The translations under genes were made by a program, and so were the position numbers. The notes under the pieces were generated by a model, which ran no database searches, was not told where the DNA came from, and saw only the letters and a list, made by a program, of their open reading frames with translations. A DNA stretch of 64,000 bases from Candidatus Enterousia sp. (GTDB lineage Bacteria; Pseudomonadota; Alphaproteobacteria; Rs-D84): positions 1,223 through 65,222 of the forward strand of contig JAZSDC010000032.1 in NCBI GenBank assembly GCA_045530935.1, written 5' to 3'. Position 1 is the first letter of the stretch. Each line of letters starts with the position of its first letter. Of the stretch, positions 3,316 through 61,213 are shown one piece after another.

Positions 3316-5163
3316 TTATTTTGTTTTTTCTGTCTGTAGGACAAAACGTTTGTTTTTCGCCTGGTTCAGTATTCGATCATGTTTTAATAATGCGATACTG
3401 CGGTTAGATAAATCGATTCGCAGGCCTTCGGCTGTGTCGATAATGTTTTTTGCATGGATTTGATAGCCGCTAAATTTCTGGGTTCCCAGGGTAATTCGAG
3501 AACGAATTGACGTGTCATATATCATCCATATTGGTGATTGCGGTAATTCGGAATTGTTTGTTACAATGCCGTAAACCCCCAATAGAGCACCGTCTTGTAA
3601 TAATTTTATACGTGTGCCAAAGTGATTAGTTAATACTTTCTGGCCATTAATATATACATTATTATATGTGCCCATAAGGTTCGATTTGATGTGTTCAACA
3701 TAAACAGGAATTTCGTTAAAATTTGATTGGGGTTTTTTGTCGTTTTTCTGGCCTGAAATTATGGTTGTTTTTTTTGTGCTTGTGGCCGATTTAATTAGGC
3801 GCTCAGGAGCCTCGGACAGCATTTTTTCGATTGTTGCATTTTGTGCTTCATTGTTGTCGCAACTGTCCAGAACCAGCAGTGGGTGTACGCTGACGTTGCC
3901 TATGTCGTCAATTAATACGGTTTCTCTTTTTATTTGATTGGCCATAATTTTTGTGTGGTCTGTTGGGATAGATATCGTTTTTATCGCGGATTTATCAGTA
4001 GAAATACGCCATATCGGTTGCGCTGAATCGCGATACTTTTTTATGTGCATGTTATTTGTTAATGTGTCATACGAAATAATTGCGGCGCCTGACTTGCTTT
4101 CCGGGATAAATTCACCGGTGGTGTAATCTATTATGTGCAAGGCAAATTTGGTGGAATCAATTGTTTTGCGAATCACAGCCAGCTTGGTTTTTGTGTTAAT
4201 CAGACATACTTCATAAGGTTGTGCGCCACCGATTAGCAATTTTTCATTGGTCTTTCCATCATTAAAGTACAGTGTGTATTTGCCGCAGGTTGATGGAACA
4301 GAGTATATTGGAAACAGTCTTTGGGCTGATTGTTTTGTGGGAATAACAGGTTCTTTTTTGTGTGTTCTGTGTTTTCCGGTAAATTTCATCGTTTCAGGAT
4401 CGTATCCAGGAAATGCTGCTGCTAATGCTGTGTTTAATGATTGTTCAATTGGCATGTTGTGTGTGATACGGTAATGATATGCTGCGCGCAGGTTTTGTGT
4501 GGGTGCGTCTGACCAATCTTCACGAATAGTTGTTTTCCTGGGGGCTGCGCTTTTCTCTTCCAGGGCGGTTATGATTTCGTTTGGGATGTCCAGATTGCGT
4601 CTTTTGCGATAATGTACAGCCGTTTGTAATTGTTTTTTTGTCATTTTAGACCAATCTGTTCCTTGGGATATAAATGTATCTGTTGTGGCGTCATAGTTTG
4701 GAAAATGTTCTTGCAGTGCGGCAATCAGTTCCGGTTCAAGTGGTTTTTTGGCGGCGTGTCGATTGTGGCGTGCAGATTTTAATTGTGCATCAGTTGCTGT
4801 TGACCAGTCGGTTATTTTGTTGCTGCGACGTGTTATTGTGTGGGTTTGTGGATCGTATGTTGGAAAGCGGTCTATTAATGCGTCTGATAATTCTAGTTCA
4901 ATTTCTTGACCATTTCTGCGACGATGATTTAATGCGCTGTACAGCGCTGCATTTGATTTTTTCGACCAATTTACCTTGTCGCGTTTTGATGTTGTTTGGG
5001 GTAGGGCTGATTTGCTGGATGACGATGTGTTTTTTCTGACAATTTCATAAATGATTTTTTCGGATATTGCGACAGTCAGATCATTTATGCAGCTTTTTAA
5101 ATTTTCAATGGCTTTTTGTATTTTTTCATCTTCTGTTAATTTGGTCTTTTTTTGATATGTCAT
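3316..5163 (-). CDS. 615-aa cytoplasmic protein with four ~50-aa tandem repeats (DWS..L..A.H.R..AL...FP.YD..T), no recognised family
   Basis: Long ORF with no signal peptide. The repeats are visible in the translation at residues ~64-265. Confidence 0.85.
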   Translation of the reverse strand: MTYQKKTKLTEDEKIQKAIENLKSCINDLTVAISEKIIYEIVRKNTSSSSKSALPQTTSKRDKVNWSKKSNAALYSALNHRRRNGQEIELELSDALIDRFPTYDPQTHTITRRSNKITDWSTATDAQLKSARHNRHAAKKPLEPELIAALQEHFPNYDATTDTFISQGTDWSKMTKKQLQTAVHYRKRRNLDIPNEIITALEEKSAAPRKTTIREDWSDAPTQNLRAAYHYRITHNMPIEQSLNTALAAAFPGYDPETMKFTGKHRTHKKEPVIPTKQSAQRLFPIYSVPSTCGKYTLYFNDGKTNEKLLIGGAQPYEVCLINTKTKLAVIRKTIDSTKFALHIIDYTTGEFIPESKSGAAIISYDTLTNNMHIKKYRDSAQPIWRISTDKSAIKTISIPTDHTKIMANQIKRETVLIDDIGNVSVHPLLVLDSCDNNEAQNATIEKMLSEAPERLIKSATSTKKTTIISGQKNDKKPQSNFNEIPVYVEHIKSNLMGTYNNVYINGQKVLTNHFGTRIKLLQDGALLGVYGIVTNNSELPQSPIWMIYDTSIRSRITLGTQKFSGYQIHAKNIIDTAEGLRIDLSNRSIALLKHDRILNQAKNKRFVLQTEKTK

Positions 5164-7083: not shown

Positions 7084-8193
7084 TTATTTAGTATTGGTTA
7101 GTGCATTTGTTAGTATGAATTTTAGAAATGCGTCACGCTCTTCTTCGCTCATCTTTTTTATATCTATTTCTTCTGTGCTGCCGAAAAGTGTAGATATTGA
7201 TTTCTCTGGAAATGCTGCCGTTAGTTTTTGGTGTATATTTAGCAGGTATTCTGGGCATTGCGTGAAGTTTACAATGTGTTGATTGTGTACCGCAAAAATT
7301 GGTGTAAATGGTTTTTTGCTGGAATTGTCAATAACGATTGCGTAGCTTTCTGTTAGTAAAACATCACCCATTGTTTGCATTTTGTCATGATAACGTTCAA
7401 ATATTATTGGTTGTGGTATATCGTGTCCGCCATTGCTGACGCGGTGTTGAACACGGGCGACACTTAATTCTGGACATAATACACACATGTGTAAAACATA
7501 TATTTGATAATTGTTTTTTTCGGCCAGTTGCTTCATACGTTTGCCAGAGCATGTCGTTTCAAATATTATATTTTGGGATTCCTTAAATGCTTGGTTGATG
7601 TGTTGGCGCATGTTTATCGCGGCTTCGCGGTAAATGCGATTGTTTAAAATCCCCAGTTTTTGATGGTATTTGTTTTTGATGATTGTTTTCTTTACCTTGG
7701 GGTTATGGACCAGTTGTTGATATTTTGGATACCAGCTTTGGCCGGATGCTTTTGCATTTATGCGTTCGTTGACATTTTTTCCCCCGATTTTTTTCATAAG
7801 ATCGGCTGTCGAGAAAATATCATTTTCTATATCGTTCATGTTATCGGGAGGGCTGATTAATGCACGGTATTGATCATACCAATATTTATTGTTTTCTGGT
7901 TGGTGAATTCGGGTAATTATATTGCCACCAACCTGGTCCATTTGCTTTTTAAAACGAGTCGCAGTGTCGATATTTACTTGATCTATCTGGATTTGCATTT
8001 CTTGTGCAATGGTTTCGTATTGCACGGAATATTCAGGTAAGTGTTTTAAATTGGCGATTTCGTCATCGTAATTTAAAAATGTTACGCCAGACAGTGCCGG
8101 TGTTTGAGTCATTATGGTGTTTCGGAATGTGGTTTTCCCGGCACCATTTGGGCCAGATACAATTATGATGTATGGTTTTTTTGCTTGTGTCAT
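7084..8193 (-). CDS. zeta-toxin/COG4185-like P-loop kinase with a ~150-aa internal insertion
   Basis: Walker A GPNGAGKTT, then FLNYDDEIA. Much later come FETTCSGK and RVQHRVSNGGHDIP, which are the conserved blocks of the zeta-toxin-like ATPase family. Confidence 0.7.
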   Translation of the reverse strand: MTQAKKPYIIIVSGPNGAGKTTFRNTIMTQTPALSGVTFLNYDDEIANLKHLPEYSVQYETIAQEMQIQIDQVNIDTATRFKKQMDQVGGNIITRIHQPENNKYWYDQYRALISPPDNMNDIENDIFSTADLMKKIGGKNVNERINAKASGQSWYPKYQQLVHNPKVKKTIIKNKYHQKLGILNNRIYREAAINMRQHINQAFKESQNIIFETTCSGKRMKQLAEKNNYQIYVLHMCVLCPELSVARVQHRVSNGGHDIPQPIIFERYHDKMQTMGDVLLTESYAIVIDNSSKKPFTPIFAVHNQHIVNFTQCPEYLLNIHQKLTAAFPEKSISTLFGSTEEIDIKKMSEEERDAFLKFILTNALTNTK

Positions 8194-42123: not shown

Positions 42124-42225
42124 TTTTCTATTCCTGATAATATTTTAATATATTTGTGTGTATTTTATCATATGTTCGCGAAAAAAACAAAAAATATTGT
42201 ACATATTGATTGTACTTATAGTTGC

Positions 42226-42417
42226 GGTTTTAATTTTGGTGGCGGCTCGTCGGACTGTATATTCCCATAATCGCTTTCGCTCTATGGGCCCCTTTCACTA
42301 CGTAAGGTTCAAACTGCGCGCGTGTGGACGCTTGTTTTCACCAACTGACGTTCCGAACTGGTCGGTCCTTCGTCCAACCAGACCAAAATAAAAACCACCA
42401 TTTGGTGGTTTTAATTC
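42226..42417 (-). repeat. tRNA-linked element E1: terminator, ~100-nt core with hairpin, and a diverged copy of the tRNA-Leu 3' end
   Basis: ggttttaatt-t-tggtggcggctcgtcggact (42226..42256) repeats ggttttaatt-c-tggtggccctggtcggact (42407..42436). The core is homologous to 58057..58142. Confidence 0.7.
42390..42411 (-). terminator. rho-independent terminator of tRNA-Leu(CAA)
   Basis: Minus strand: aaaccacca-aat-ggtggttt plus ttatttt. Confidence 0.8.
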
Positions 42418-42502
42418 TGGTGGCCCTGGTCGGACTCGAACCGACACTCATTGCTGAACTTGATTTTGAGTCAAGCGCGTCTACCAATTCCGCCACGGGG
42501 CC
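42418..42502 (-). tRNA. tRNA-Leu (anticodon CAA)
   Basis: 85-nt type II tRNA. GGCGGAATTGGTAGACGC D-arm, anticodon loop CTCAAAA, long variable arm, T-loop GTTCGAG, encoded CCA. One C:A mismatch in the acceptor stem. Confidence 0.9.
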
Positions 42503-56959: not shown

Positions 56960-57886
56960 ATGAAATTATTGATTATTTCATTTTTGCTTTGTATTCTGGG
57001 GTTTGATTGCAATGCTAAAATTGATAATCGTAAATATGCGGATTGGGGCGCCTATCCATATAATATGTTTGTATTGGTTAATTACAGTGGTACAGGTCAA
57101 TATGTTGCGCCCGATTTAATTTTGACCAGTTTGCATCTTGTTGATCAGACGTGCTATGATTCCGAATTGGATTATATTAATCAGCGTGGTTGCGATTTGT
57201 TGGATTCGTTGGAGCGTGAATACAAAGGGGATGTTGTTGCAGTTGGCAGACCATATTCTATTATGTCTGGTAAGCCTTTTGATGGTACAGGGTATTTGCC
57301 GTCGGATGATTGGGCGTTAATTCGGGTCAGGGATCCAAAATTTTTTCGTTATGATTATTTTAATGTATTGCCCCAGGCAAAAACTGGGAATGTGAATAAT
57401 GCGGGATTCGGTGCGATGCGTATCGTAACAGATGCAGAACTGAAAATCATACGCAAGAAATTTATCAGATTGGTGCGAGAAAGGTATCCTGTGAATGATA
57501 ATGATGATGTTGTCTTGAAAAGGATTCCTTTTACAGATTTTATTAGAGATTTGGATGATGCTTTGGGACAAGATGACGAAGATGGCCAAGCAATGGAACC
57601 GTTGTTTCAAGATGGGGATAAATTAAAATTCTCGAGATGCAGCATAGAAGATGTCGAAAATGGCTATTTCTATCACAGGTGTATGGGCGCACATGGTAAT
57701 TCGGGTGGCGCATTTTGGAGTGGTGATAATGATTTACATGGAATTTTAGCAACAGGGGCAGATTCATTTGATAAAAAAATAATGAAGCAAGGCAGTGGTG
57801 TAGATAGTAAATCTTTTTATGATGCCTTGATGCAGGCGATGATTTTATCAGAAGATAAAGAATTATCCACGTTGGACGTGGATTAA
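56960..57886 (+). CDS. secreted trypsin-like (S1) serine peptidase
   Basis: Signal peptide. His context LILTSLHLV, Asp context DDWALIRV, Ser context GAHGNSGGAFW. Confidence 0.75.
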   Translation: MKLLIISFLLCILGFDCNAKIDNRKYADWGAYPYNMFVLVNYSGTGQYVAPDLILTSLHLVDQTCYDSELDYINQRGCDLLDSLEREYKGDVVAVGRPYSIMSGKPFDGTGYLPSDDWALIRVRDPKFFRYDYFNVLPQAKTGNVNNAGFGAMRIVTDAELKIIRKKFIRLVRERYPVNDNDDVVLKRIPFTDFIRDLDDALGQDDEDGQAMEPLFQDGDKLKFSRCSIEDVENGYFYHRCMGAHGNSGGAFWSGDNDLHGILATGADSFDKKIMKQGSGVDSKSFYDALMQAMILSEDKELSTLDVD

Positions 57887-58241
57887 TAAAAAATGCACCG
57901 GCGGCGGGGCATTCGTTAGTGCGCGAACTGCGTTGGGGGTGTTCTGGCGTACTTATTGTCGAACCCTGGGTTCAAATATCCACGTTGCACGTGGATTAAT
58001 AAAAAATACCACACAAGGTGGTATTTTCTATTAATTCTGGCGCATCCAGAAGGATTGTTTAATTCCCATCACTGGCGTGATGGGCCCCTTTTCCCCGCGT
58101 AAGGTTCGAACATCGTTGGCACTCGTTCTCACCAACTATCGGGTCGAACCCTGGGTTCAAATATCCACGTTGGACGTGGATTAATAAAAAATACCACACA
58201 AGGTGGTATTTTCTATTAATTCTGGCGCATCCAGAAGGATT
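57865..58241 (-). repeat. tRNA-Arg-linked repeat array (elements E2/E3)
   Basis: Three copies of the 30-bp hairpin module atccacgttg(g/c)acgtggattaataaaaaat (57865, 57978, 58163). A 99-bp direct repeat 57958..58056 = 58143..58241 (1 mismatch) contains the tRNA-Arg terminator and 19 nt of its 3' end. Confidence 0.85.
58185..58209 (-). terminator. rho-independent terminator of tRNA-Arg (duplicated at 58000..58024)
   Basis: Minus strand: ataccac-cttgt-gtggtat plus T6. Confidence 0.8.
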
Positions 58242-58299
58242 CGAACCCTCAGTCTTCTGATCCGTAGTCAGATGCTTTATCCAGTTAAGCTATGGATGC
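58223..58299 (-). tRNA. tRNA-Arg (anticodon ACG)
   Basis: 77-nt cloverleaf. Acceptor GCATCCA/TGGATGC, anticodon loop CTACGGA, T-loop GTTCGAA, encoded CCA. Confidence 0.95.
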
Positions 58300-59992: not shown

Positions 59993-61213
59993 ATGAACAA
60001 GAAAGGAATTGTTTTTTTATTGTTGGGTGTAACGTGTTCGGTGTCGGCGGCGCCCGAAGGCGCATTAATGCGCAGCGCGAAAAGTTTGTTGCGTCCACAA
60101 AAATTTCCAAAAGTGTTCAAAGATTTGCCTTTCCATGAACGTGTTGCCATAAAAGACGAAGGGTACGAGAACTATGATAGCGAATTTGATAAAAATGGAA
60201 TTTGTATTTCTGGGTGTGCATATCCAGGAATGACAATTGAAGAAGAAAAAAAAATTATTGCCCAGGCAACCCAGGAGTTTTATGAGGCTATAGAACAAAA
60301 TGGCGGGTTGGGTGATCGAATCCCAGGTGCTGGTTCGCCAGGTGGTTCGCCAGGTGGTTCGCCAGGTGGTTTGCCAGGTGGTTCACCAGGTGGTTCACCA
60401 GGTGGTTCGCCAGGTGGTTCGCCAGGTGGTTCGCCAGGTGGTTCGCCAGGTGGTTCGCCAGGTGGTTCGCCAGGTGGTTCACCAGGTGGTTCGCCAGGTG
60501 GTTCGCCGGGTGGTTCGCCAGGTGGTTCACCAGGTGGTTCACCAGGTGGTTCGCCAGGTGGTTCACCAGGTGGTTTGCCAGGTGGTTCGCCAGGTGGTTC
60601 GTTGGGTGGTAATGATAGGTGTCCTAAAGCAATTAGAGGTGTTGTTCCACCATTAAAAAGAGACTTGATTGTTGTATCTGATTTTGGATATAGAGATGTC
60701 ACCAGTGGTTCAAAAAATCATAAGGGGATTGATTTGCGGGCTGGGATAGGAACGCGGGTTTACGCGGCGGCGGCTGGGACGCTTTATTGTAATAGCGAGC
60801 TTAGAAGTGGAGGTGGAGGCTATTATGCGGAAGTGCACCATGGATTGCTGAATGAGAAAACTGTTAAAACAAAATATCTACATTTGAAGGCGGACTCTTG
60901 CAAGTGTACAAACTCTGCAGGCTGTTCTGTTGTGAAGGGGCAACAAATTGCGTTGTCTGGAAATACGCCCAGTGTGACCCCGCATCTGGATTATAGGGTT
61001 TTTTATGGTGGTGTAGCAATAGATCCATTGGGGTCGAAAGTGGCACCGTATTATATAGATAATGGTGTGTTTAGGCAATGGCCTGCCCAGCCCAATGTTT
61101 TTCTGTCGGCGCCGTATAAAATTAAGCGAGGGCTTACCAGTAAGCGTGTAAAAGGTAAAACAGAAGAACAGTTGATACAAGATTTCCCGTGTTGTTCAGG
61201 ATATTCTAATTAA
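59993..61213 (+). CDS. M23 (LytM) peptidase with a (GGSP)n linker
   Basis: Signal peptide, ~23 GG(S/L)P repeats, HKGIDLRAG and HLDYRV M23 motifs. Confidence 0.85.
   Translation: MNKKGIVFLLLGVTCSVSAAPEGALMRSAKSLLRPQKFPKVFKDLPFHERVAIKDEGYENYDSEFDKNGICISGCAYPGMTIEEEKKIIAQATQEFYEAIEQNGGLGDRIPGAGSPGGSPGGSPGGLPGGSPGGSPGGSPGGSPGGSPGGSPGGSPGGSPGGSPGGSPGGSPGGSPGGSPGGSPGGSPGGSPGGLPGGSPGGSLGGNDRCPKAIRGVVPPLKRDLIVVSDFGYRDVTSGSKNHKGIDLRAGIGTRVYAAAAGTLYCNSELRSGGGGYYAEVHHGLLNEKTVKTKYLHLKADSCKCTNSAGCSVVKGQQIALSGNTPSVTPHLDYRVFYGGVAIDPLGSKVAPYYIDNGVFRQWPAQPNVFLSAPYKIKRGLTSKRVKGKTEEQLIQDFPCCSGYSN
60326..60610 (+). repeat. 12-nt tandem repeat (ggtggttcgcca), about 23 copies, in frame
   Basis: Read directly. 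Variants are tcg/tca/ttg at the third codon of the unit. Confidence 0.95.

Follow-up and report, generated by a model that had tools for sequence, protein, structure and literature searches.

Results

Units behind tRNA-Leu(CAA) and tRNA-Arg(ACG)

The window, i.e. the whole stretch of 64,000 nucleotides of Candidatus Enterousia DNA analyzed here, carries two related units, E1 and E2, each located directly 3′ of a tRNA gene on the minus strand. All features described below lie on this strand and are given in the tRNA sense. E1 (42226-42417) is situated 3′ of the tRNA-Leu(CAA) gene (42418-42502; ARAGORN; 57.9 bits with the Rfam tRNA model). A terminator scan placed a first terminator, T1, composed of AAAACCACC-aaat-GGTGGTTTT and a subsequent T run, at 42391-42412. 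It is followed by an inverted, diverged copy of the 3′ part of tRNA-Leu (TGGT..CTGGTTGGA..CGAAGGACCGAC; 42361-42385), which emerged from a local alignment with the reverse-complemented tRNA 3′ end and comprises the complement of CCA, of the acceptor 3′ strand and of the T arm. The core (42257-42364), delimited by alignment and by the covariance model R1, starts with a forward T-loop-like TTCGG and proceeds through P1, P2 and P3 to GGGAATATAC. Helix P2 (GGTGA-AAAC ... GTTT-GAACC; 42306-42342) harbors a tandem G.A internal loop and a variable tip, and hairpin P3 (CCCATA..TATGGG; 42264-42288) reads CCCATAGAGCGAAAGCGATTATGGG. The unit ends with a distal forward copy of the tRNA-Leu 3′ end (AGTCCGACGAGCCGCCACCA; 42237-42256), which starts in the T loop (AGTCC..) and terminates in CCACCA, and with a copy of the first 11 nt of the downstream flank of the tRNA (aaattaaaacc; 42226-42236). 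A preliminary description, made from the sequence of the window, had given the order tRNA, terminator, core, hairpin and tRNA 3′ copy for the minus strand, and this order was found at the positions listed.

In the minimum-free-energy fold of E1, the inverted copy pairs with the distal copy. The corresponding duplex test gave -18.7 kcal/mol, and none of 24 non-cognate partners performed better. The distal copy has diverged, with 3 errors relative to the last 19 nt of tRNA-Leu(CAA), and the second terminator (T2) has been lost. Because of the decayed 3′ copy and the absence of T2, E1 may be a decaying or dying copy. Its core is still intact and matched R1, which was built from relatives, with 95.7 bits (E about 1e-25).

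E2 (about 58035-58222), located behind tRNA-Arg(ACG) (58223-58299; ARAGORN; 67.3 bits with the Rfam tRNA model), is made up of the same blocks. Here, the repeated tRNA end belongs to a longer direct repeat of 99 nt, which also contains a terminator and two hairpins. The proximal arm (58143-58241) includes 19 nt of the tRNA 3′ end, T1 (58188-58212), the palindrome ATCCACGTCCAACGTGGAT (58163-58181) and hairpin P0 (TTGAACCC-A-GGGTTCGA; 58144-58160). The palindrome is a remodelled inverted copy that has become self-complementary, and the long-range helix is absent from the minimum-free-energy fold of E2. The conserved core (58058-58155; 89.4 bits with R1) contains P2 (58103-58133) and P3 (58065-58084) and folds with z = -6.4. 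The distal arm (57958-58056), identical to the proximal one at 98 of 99 nt, comprises the tRNA copy, the second terminator (58003-58027; terminator scan), the palindrome and P0; within it, the 3′ 19 nt of tRNA-Arg are copied without error (19/19; 58038-58056).

Behind E2 lies what is left of a second unit, which is of another type (module B, GACAATAAGTA...ACGAATGCCCCGCC...; about 57891-57960). It has neither a 3′ hairpin nor a tRNA copy, matched R1 weakly (8.2 bits) and shares its start and a ACGAATGCCCCGC block with six module B copies in related loci (L002, L010, L025, L029 and L033). As a whole, E2 is an array in which a complete unit, with an error-free 3′ copy and a second terminator, is followed by a truncated module B unit. 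Homology between the E1 and E2 cores, as proposed earlier, was substantiated over ~100 nt: both ranked first in an R1 search of the window, and the next match reached 13 bits.

Structure and covariation of the core

The core structure was set by hand and then re-fitted with a covariance model. In the re-aligned core, 93% of the cells were paired and 8 of 18 pairs showed double changes; the alignment was fitted to the structure, so that these counts lean toward it. None of 500 shuffles reached the observed values, and slid controls collapsed. Double compensatory changes were present in 6 of the 7 pairs of P2 (GGU-GA-AAAC / GUUU-GA-ACC) across the family. The comparison of E1 with E2 provides one example (AAAC/GUUU versus GAAC/GUUC), and in a diverged copy in L010 all three GGU/ACC pairs are changed. 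RNAalifold, applied to a plain MAFFT alignment, recovered P2 alone because the hairpins were misaligned in this alignment. P3 occurred in 24 distinct sequences of 13-48 nt, all of which fold as hairpins (median z -4.9). The compensatory change that had been suspected from the differing hairpins of E1 and E2 was borne out by these 24 folding versions, and covariation extended to the core pairs, which surpassed all shuffles. GU exceeded AC among the core pairs (21 versus 10). Furthermore, the single-stranded blocks AGTTGGT, GAACCTTACG or (G)AACCTTACG, GAAAGGGGCCC and TGGGAAT are near-invariant in about 33 species. Judged by this comparative evidence, the core is a structured element. The units have a length of 180-200 bp and contain no ORF. 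Coding potential was rejected, since the P3 lengths vary by non-multiples of 3.

Occurrence of the family and linkage to tRNA genes

The two-block pattern GAACCTTACG-N3-9-AAAGGGGCCCAT occurs exactly twice in the window, and 0 occurrences were expected from 100 shuffles. The family search consisted of a single 20-base pattern scan of 185,579 species genomes and yielded 39 loci, one of which (L011 from Bacteriovorax) was a chance match to the pattern and was dropped. The hosts are about 33 uncultured gut Alphaproteobacteria, many of them labelled Candidatus Enterousia. A search for the core in relatives, as advised in the preliminary description, revealed tRNA association elsewhere: 30 of 42 pattern matches were located 102-140 nt behind a same-strand tRNA, and the others lay at contig edges, in most cases, or were orphans. 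In 29 relatives, the core starts 70-89 nt after the same-strand tRNA. The linked tRNAs belong to 11 isoacceptors, namely Glu(TTC), Glu(CTC), His, Lys, Asp, Thr, Arg, Ser, Tyr, Leu(CAA) and Leu(TAA). Compared with the last 19 nt of its own tRNA, the distal copy was perfect in 16 of 29 fully resolved units and had at most one error in 21 of 29. Hence the earlier statement that each copy carries the 3′ end of its own tRNA applies to E1 and E2, with the errors given above, and to the family.

Only 1-2 pattern matches were found per genome, and several MAGs have two loci. Tandem units are present in L002, L010 and L013, and tandem arrays of different modules stand behind one tRNA in L002, L010, L025, L029 and E2. 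Other tRNAs at the family loci are followed by a terminator alone or by other modules, and empty sites were seen, for example at tRNA-Asp in L027 and L040. Decayed or truncated copies comprise the distal copy of E1, a tRNA-Asp remnant in L005 and a deletion into tRNA-Asp in L029. The length of the direct repeat ranged from 8 to 100 nt across units.

The 8-kb flanks of the 39 loci consist of syntenic housekeeping genes; therefore, the same tRNA loci are occupied in different species. L28 and ClpB, for instance, adjoin tRNA-Leu(CAA) in four loci, the window included. From species to species, the units are retained at the same tRNA loci, and P3 subtypes differ between species at one locus. Cores at different tRNAs of one genome were 97-98% identical (Asp in L009 and His in L015; Leu in L035 and His in L039). 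Most simply, gene conversion between paralogues of ~100 nt is enough to explain this likeness within a genome. Core identity of this degree between loci of one genome may also be expected from recent copying.

Inverted tRNA copy, insertion point and terminators

Alignment of the units to their own tRNAs displayed a common order. T1 is followed by the inverted tRNA copy, a loop of 3-7 nt, the forward 5′ strand of the T stem with TTCG, and the core. Behind the core, the forward copy resumes with the 3′ half of the T loop and continues through T stem and acceptor to CCA, usually followed by T2. Thus, tRNA positions ~49-76 are copied as a hairpin, the forward arm of which holds the core in its T loop. 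The inverted copy between terminator and core is somewhat decayed, covers the CCA complement, the acceptor 3′ strand and the whole T arm (~30 nt) and is present in nearly all units. Its duplex energy was -16.0 kcal/mol with cognate and -11.2 kcal/mol with non-cognate partners. Substitutions in the inverted copy were biased toward keeping G.U pairs in the sense RNA (C>T 25 versus G>A 4). The inverted T loop often carries a TC>GA change (ATTCGAA to ATGAGAA), both in Enterousia units and in E. coli RtT. This change sets G.A mismatches opposite G57 and A58, the entry point of the module. An 'empty palindrome', i.e. an uninterrupted forward or inverted copy of T arm plus acceptor without a module, was searched for and none was found. 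Three features had been missed in the preliminary description, namely the inverted copy of the tRNA 3′ end ahead of the core, the placement of the core within the T-loop copy, and module B behind E2.

A terminator directly after the tRNA was detected in 29 of 29 units and a second one after the distal CCA in 24 of 29. The downstream terminators in L005 and L012 differ in sequence from T1. No promoter was found between T1 and the unit in E1 and E2, and the output of the units would therefore depend on a leaky T1.

Searches for known families and mobile-element partners

Rfam scans with gathering scores and with E<=10, which covered the window, E1 and E2, L029 and 18 related loci, detected tRNAs only; the cores match no Rfam family. 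The RtT model RF00391 has a gathering threshold of 45 bits. It gave no match on E1 and E2 at E<=10 and none on the 18 related loci at gathering score. A tmRNA or tRNA-like gene was rejected, as ARAGORN and the Rfam tRNA and tmRNA models do not recognise the units. Inspection by eye showed none of the defining motifs of group II intron domain V, hammerhead or IS608-like ends, and these classes were dropped.

All-against-all ORF clustering revealed no integrase, reverse transcriptase or recurrent recombinase within the 8-kb flanks of the 39 loci, and no transposase was seen in these flanks. The ORF clusters of the loci and the window were exclusively syntenic housekeeping or secreted-protein clusters, and the gene map of the window shows no obvious recombinase or reverse transcriptase. 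The earlier remark that the unit is shorter than 200 bp and has no integrase nearby thus holds for the flanks of all 39 loci; full-length copies beside a tyrosine integrase, which it had been suggested to look for, did not turn up in them. Two pattern scans of viral contigs and BLAST searches of phages and plasmids produced no matches. Exact-protein look-ups for strain-level polymorphism led from L28 to one 529-bp contig and from thymidine kinase to none. A MITE or an IS200-IS605-type element fits poorly: the outer inverted repeats are tRNA-specific and not element-specific, the direct repeat has no fixed length, and no transposase was seen in the 8-kb flanks. A tRNA-integrating island or prophage is unlikely: a bounding direct repeat of the tRNA 3′ part is present, but no integrase was found in the units or in their 8-kb flanks.

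Comparison with tRNA-linked repeats of E. coli

The layout of the Enterousia units resembles that of the tRNA-linked repeats (TLRs) of E. coli K-12, a class of 22 repeats at ten loci (PMC8144298). TLRs are recognised by their last 18-19 bp, which are identical to the 3′ terminus of the tRNA or rRNA upstream of them; in E. coli they were already known in 1978, and no function has been established for them (PMC8144298). The class includes the 178-bp repeats of tyrT/tyrV with the rtT/RttR RNA (Egan & Landy 1978 and Rudd 1999, as cited in PMC8144298). The rtT RNA and RrA, RrB and RrF are transcribed together with the upstream RNA and processed to discrete small RNAs (PMC8144298). RrA, RrB and RrF, which are linked to 5S rRNA, are located between dual terminators and are produced by read-through of T1 (Stenum et al. 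2021, PMC8144298). Their ends lie 3 nt after the 3′ end of the upstream RNA and 3 nt after the repeat, and they bind Hfq and CsrA, via GGA motifs (PMC8144298). The preliminary description had stated that no described family has the layout of E1 and E2. This turned out to be wrong, as E. coli tRNA-linked repeats (RtT RNA, RF00391) share it.

The similarity to the tyrT/tyrV locus extends to details of the units. The locus contains four RtT units (133-138 bits with RF00391, the tyrT match serving as positive control), of which one separates tyrT from tyrV and three form a tandem array behind tyrV. Its order is tRNA-Tyr, spacer, GGGGAAGGATGAGAAGCTTC (inverted T arm and start of the acceptor), the loop GACC, AAGGTTCGA, the module and AATCCTTCCCCCACCACCA. 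The inverted T arm is GGATGAGAAGCTTC, and the forward copy resumes with AATCC..CCA after the module. In both systems the units stand directly behind a same-strand tRNA, occur as tandem copies and at several loci, and close with 18-19 nt copied from the 3′ end of that tRNA, CCA included. As in the Enterousia units, the E. coli sequence shows an inverted copy of the T arm and acceptor start, the T loop of which carries the TC>GA change (GGATGAGAA). A small hairpin and the forward AAGGTTCGA come next in E. coli, and the module enters at the identical T-loop position, ahead of AATCC..CCA. Moreover, the consensus structure of RF00391 pairs the inverted copy with the 3′ copy, and the same long-range helix enclosing the module is predicted in the fold of E1, though not in that of E2. 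The TLR description of PMC8144298 contains, as far as we found, no mention of the inverted T arm and of the module inside the T-loop copy.

In contrast, the cores are unrelated in sequence and model. The Enterousia core model scored 2.8-4.7 bits on the RtT copies, and homology of the Enterousia core to RtT was rejected, as both model directions failed. An intrinsic-terminator hairpin stands directly behind the tRNA in the Enterousia units but is missing from the tyrT/tyrV units. The host classes differ as well, RtT being found in Gammaproteobacteria and the Enterousia units in Alphaproteobacteria. In the arrangement of terminators, the Enterousia units resemble rrA, rrB and rrF. At these loci, the sequence shows an upstream stable RNA, T1, an element of about 100 nt, an 18-nt copy of the 3′ end and T2, the same dual-terminator layout as in 24 of the 29 Enterousia units. 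However, rrA, rrB and rrF are linked to 5S rRNA and not to a tRNA, and they have another core. The Enterousia units share with the TLR class the same-strand site behind a stable RNA, the 18-19 bp 3′ copy and the occurrence as a repeated family. By sequence, they are not members of the RtT family and are best classified as a new sequence family of the TLR type.

Discussion

We consider E1 and E2 to be probably TLR-type elements, the alphaproteobacterial counterpart of E. coli TLR/RtT with a core of their own, and assign a probability of roughly 0.6 to this explanation as a whole. Three readings had been left open in the preliminary description. The CCA-ended structured RNA fits best, in view of the covariation, the pairing of the inverted copy with the 3′ copy and the second terminator in 24 of 29 units. 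The other two, a miniature tRNA-targeting element and an island scar, have no direct support: an integrase, phage or plasmid partner was not found, and the occupied loci are syntenic.

By analogy with RrB and rtT, the units might work as follows. RNA polymerase reading through T1 would append the unit to the tRNA precursor as a transcribed tail and stop at T2. Pairing between the inverted copy and the 3′ copy would form an acceptor/T-stem-like helix with a CCA tail. We propose that, because this helix and its tail resemble a tRNA, the enzymes of tRNA 3′-end maturation would cut and trim the unit RNA too. The product would be a stable small RNA of about 180 nt, the amount of which would track transcription of the tRNA. 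Within a genome, the units would most simply be kept alike by gene conversion and by unequal recombination between the repeated tRNA ends.

An unlikely alternative is that the units are miniature integrative cassettes or their scars. In this case, a recombinase encoded elsewhere would have inserted small circular or single-stranded DNA into the T loop of tRNA genes by recombination. Each cassette would have supplied a new 3′ end for the tRNA and displaced the native one downstream, and the core together with the inverted tRNA copy would represent attachment-site arms or a folded recombination site. The tRNA identity block starts at the same T-loop position in all units, which is reportedly typical of tRNA-integrating elements (Williams 2002). 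With islands and prophages that use tyrosine integrases, the units share the direct tRNA 3′ repeat starting in the T loop, the intact tRNA and tandem accretion. The arrays of different modules behind one tRNA, the varying direct repeats, the empty sites, the near-identical cores at different tRNAs of one genome and the variation of P3 subtypes at one locus fit this alternative as well. However, the units differ from such islands in their size of about 180-200 bp without integrase or cargo, and in having an inverted tRNA copy, a covarying core and conservation at orthologous loci. Neither an integrase nor a recurrent non-syntenic gene was found within 8 kb of the 39 loci, viral contigs, phages and plasmids gave no matches, and the number of pattern matches per genome is low. 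In addition, matching direct and inverted copies would be needed for each of the eleven tRNA targets, and the sequence left of the junction (GGGAATTTAC) is unlike a T arm. Finally, the G.U bias and the hairpins of free sequence point to a constraint acting on the single-stranded sense strand.

It is improbable that the units are selfish or neutral palindromic repeat DNA without a role as RNA, generated by template switching at terminator hairpins and spread by recombination like REP, RPE and MITE-like repeats. In a unit, the tRNA 3′ part does form a large, imperfect palindrome, the centre of which lies close to the terminator and P0, and the decayed and truncated copies described above would be expected of such repeats. 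However, this origin fits poorly with near-invariant single-stranded blocks and covarying stems in about 33 species, with the low copy number and with the retention of an independent second terminator in most units. Copies also have no terminal inverted repeats in common and no target-site duplication of fixed length.

A more far-reaching proposal, which we regard as a long shot, concerns the origin of TLR-type units in Gamma- and Alphaproteobacteria alike. They could be products of a single, unrecognised copy-and-paste process that places a structured RNA module at T-loop position 57/58 of a hairpin copy of the host tRNA 3′ half and rebuilds the tRNA-specific arms at each locus. The tRNA 3′ end could, for instance, be reverse-transcribed with snap-back synthesis, or the inverted copy could serve as guide in an RNA-guided recombination. 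If this were true, the inverted T arm, the TC>GA change, the insertion point and the near-identical cores would be footprints of mobile tRNA-templated RNA cassettes.

A degenerate tandem duplicate of the neighboring tRNA with a drifted middle would account for the T-arm and acceptor-derived sequence and for the D-loop-like AGTTGGT and T-loop-like GTT(T/C)GAACC of the core, but ARAGORN and the Rfam models leave the units unscored, and this reading is effectively refuted because the 5′ tRNA-derived part is inverted, which is impossible for a tandem duplicate, and because one core stands behind 11 different tRNAs.

If E1 and E2 are TLR-type elements, as we favor, the TLR layout is not confined to Enterobacteria and would be represented by an independent family in a distant, uncultured gut lineage. 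The comparison of both groups exposes the inverted T arm and the T-loop module and thereby sharpens the anatomy of TLRs. It also calls for caution with island-finding tools, in which a repeated tRNA 3′ end may be read as an integration scar. With its strongly conserved, covarying core that is absent from Rfam, the Enterousia family is a candidate for a new Rfam RNA family. Furthermore, it would provide a second, sequence-unrelated data set on the role and origin of tRNA-tailed RNAs.

A second family of tRNA-linked modules

Module B is a second family of tRNA-linked modules beside module A, the conserved core of the E1/E2 units. It is composed of GACAA(T/G)(G/A)AGTA, a hairpin, CGA(A/C)TGCCCC, another hairpin and (A/G)AGGG, and is then joined to a tRNA copy at the 3' half of the T loop. 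Module B is found in the window at 57891-57960 on the minus strand and, among the related loci, at L002:391-464, L002:752-825, L025:1298-1373 and L029:2308-2408, as well as in L010 and L033 (minus strand). It often takes the last position of an array, and it is absent from Rfam. Behind the distal tRNA copy of E1, the stretch GCAACTATAAGTAC (window 42205-42230, minus strand) is similar to GACAATAAGTAC, with which module B begins in E2, and is possibly what is left of a second unit.

A palindrome, ATCCACGT(C/G)CAACGTGGAT, is present three times in the window (57866-57886, 57978-58000 and 58163-58185). The first copy overlaps the final codons and the stop of ORF 56960-57886 (..STLDVD*), so that a piece of the repeat unit either lies within the C-terminus of a protein or has given rise to it. 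Another ORF of the window, 59993-61213 (plus strand), contains a long run of about 25 GSPGG repeats, after which comes a C-terminal part that may be peptidase-like. The products of many ORFs nearby are secreted, cysteine-rich proteins to which no obvious name can be given.

Orphan cores and damaged units

Two orthologous orphan cores, L008:2646-2742 and L012:5571-5661 (both minus strand), have neither an upstream tRNA nor a distal copy. In front of each core lie a terminator and TGG(T)GCGCGGAGT, whose complement resembles a tRNA 3' end; behind it, both loci have TACTGTGCA(G/A)TTATCGGACTAA. The TTATCGGACT motif is found again elsewhere in L012. The first unit also lacks a preceding tRNA in L002, L003, L022 (first ~170 nt) and L036 (~7150-7250, minus strand). 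Its place is taken by a conserved AGTTCG(G)AAA(T/G)TCGTCC(G/A)GCT(A/G)GGGC..GCCA, apparently an ORF whose 3' end continues into the final ~10 nt of a tRNA-like end.

The tRNA-Asp(GTC) gene at L029:2482-2564 is intact only as far as the anticodon arm, where it is fused to the P3 hairpin (one of the core helices) and distal 3' copy of a module A unit. Rfam still scores the truncated gene with 37.5 bits, while ARAGORN made no call at this site. The arrangement looks like a deletion that removed the T arm.

Comparison with E. coli and further module types

In E. coli, the RtT units (L041, NC_000913.3:1286000-1288000) exhibit both the inverted T arm and the T-loop insertion point. The inverted copy in E. 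coli tRNA-linked repeats (TLRs) is not mentioned in PMC8144298. The 5S-linked rrB element (L042:250-470) contains GGATTTGAAC, a GTTGC..GCAAC hairpin and CCCGGAGGG, motifs that resemble the E. coli RtT core.

Further modules were located in L009 (~4150-4400) behind tRNA-Glu, at L029:2062-2206 behind tRNA-Val, and after the distal copy in L005, L019 and L036. Type C reads ..CGGTCAGAGCGCC.. or GCGCCAGAGTGCCG.., and type D ACCGTAGACGAGAGGCAGACGGCAG... Both share the layout of terminator, inverted tRNA 3' copy, module and forward tRNA 3' copy, which means that several unrelated cores occupy TLR-type frames in these genomes.
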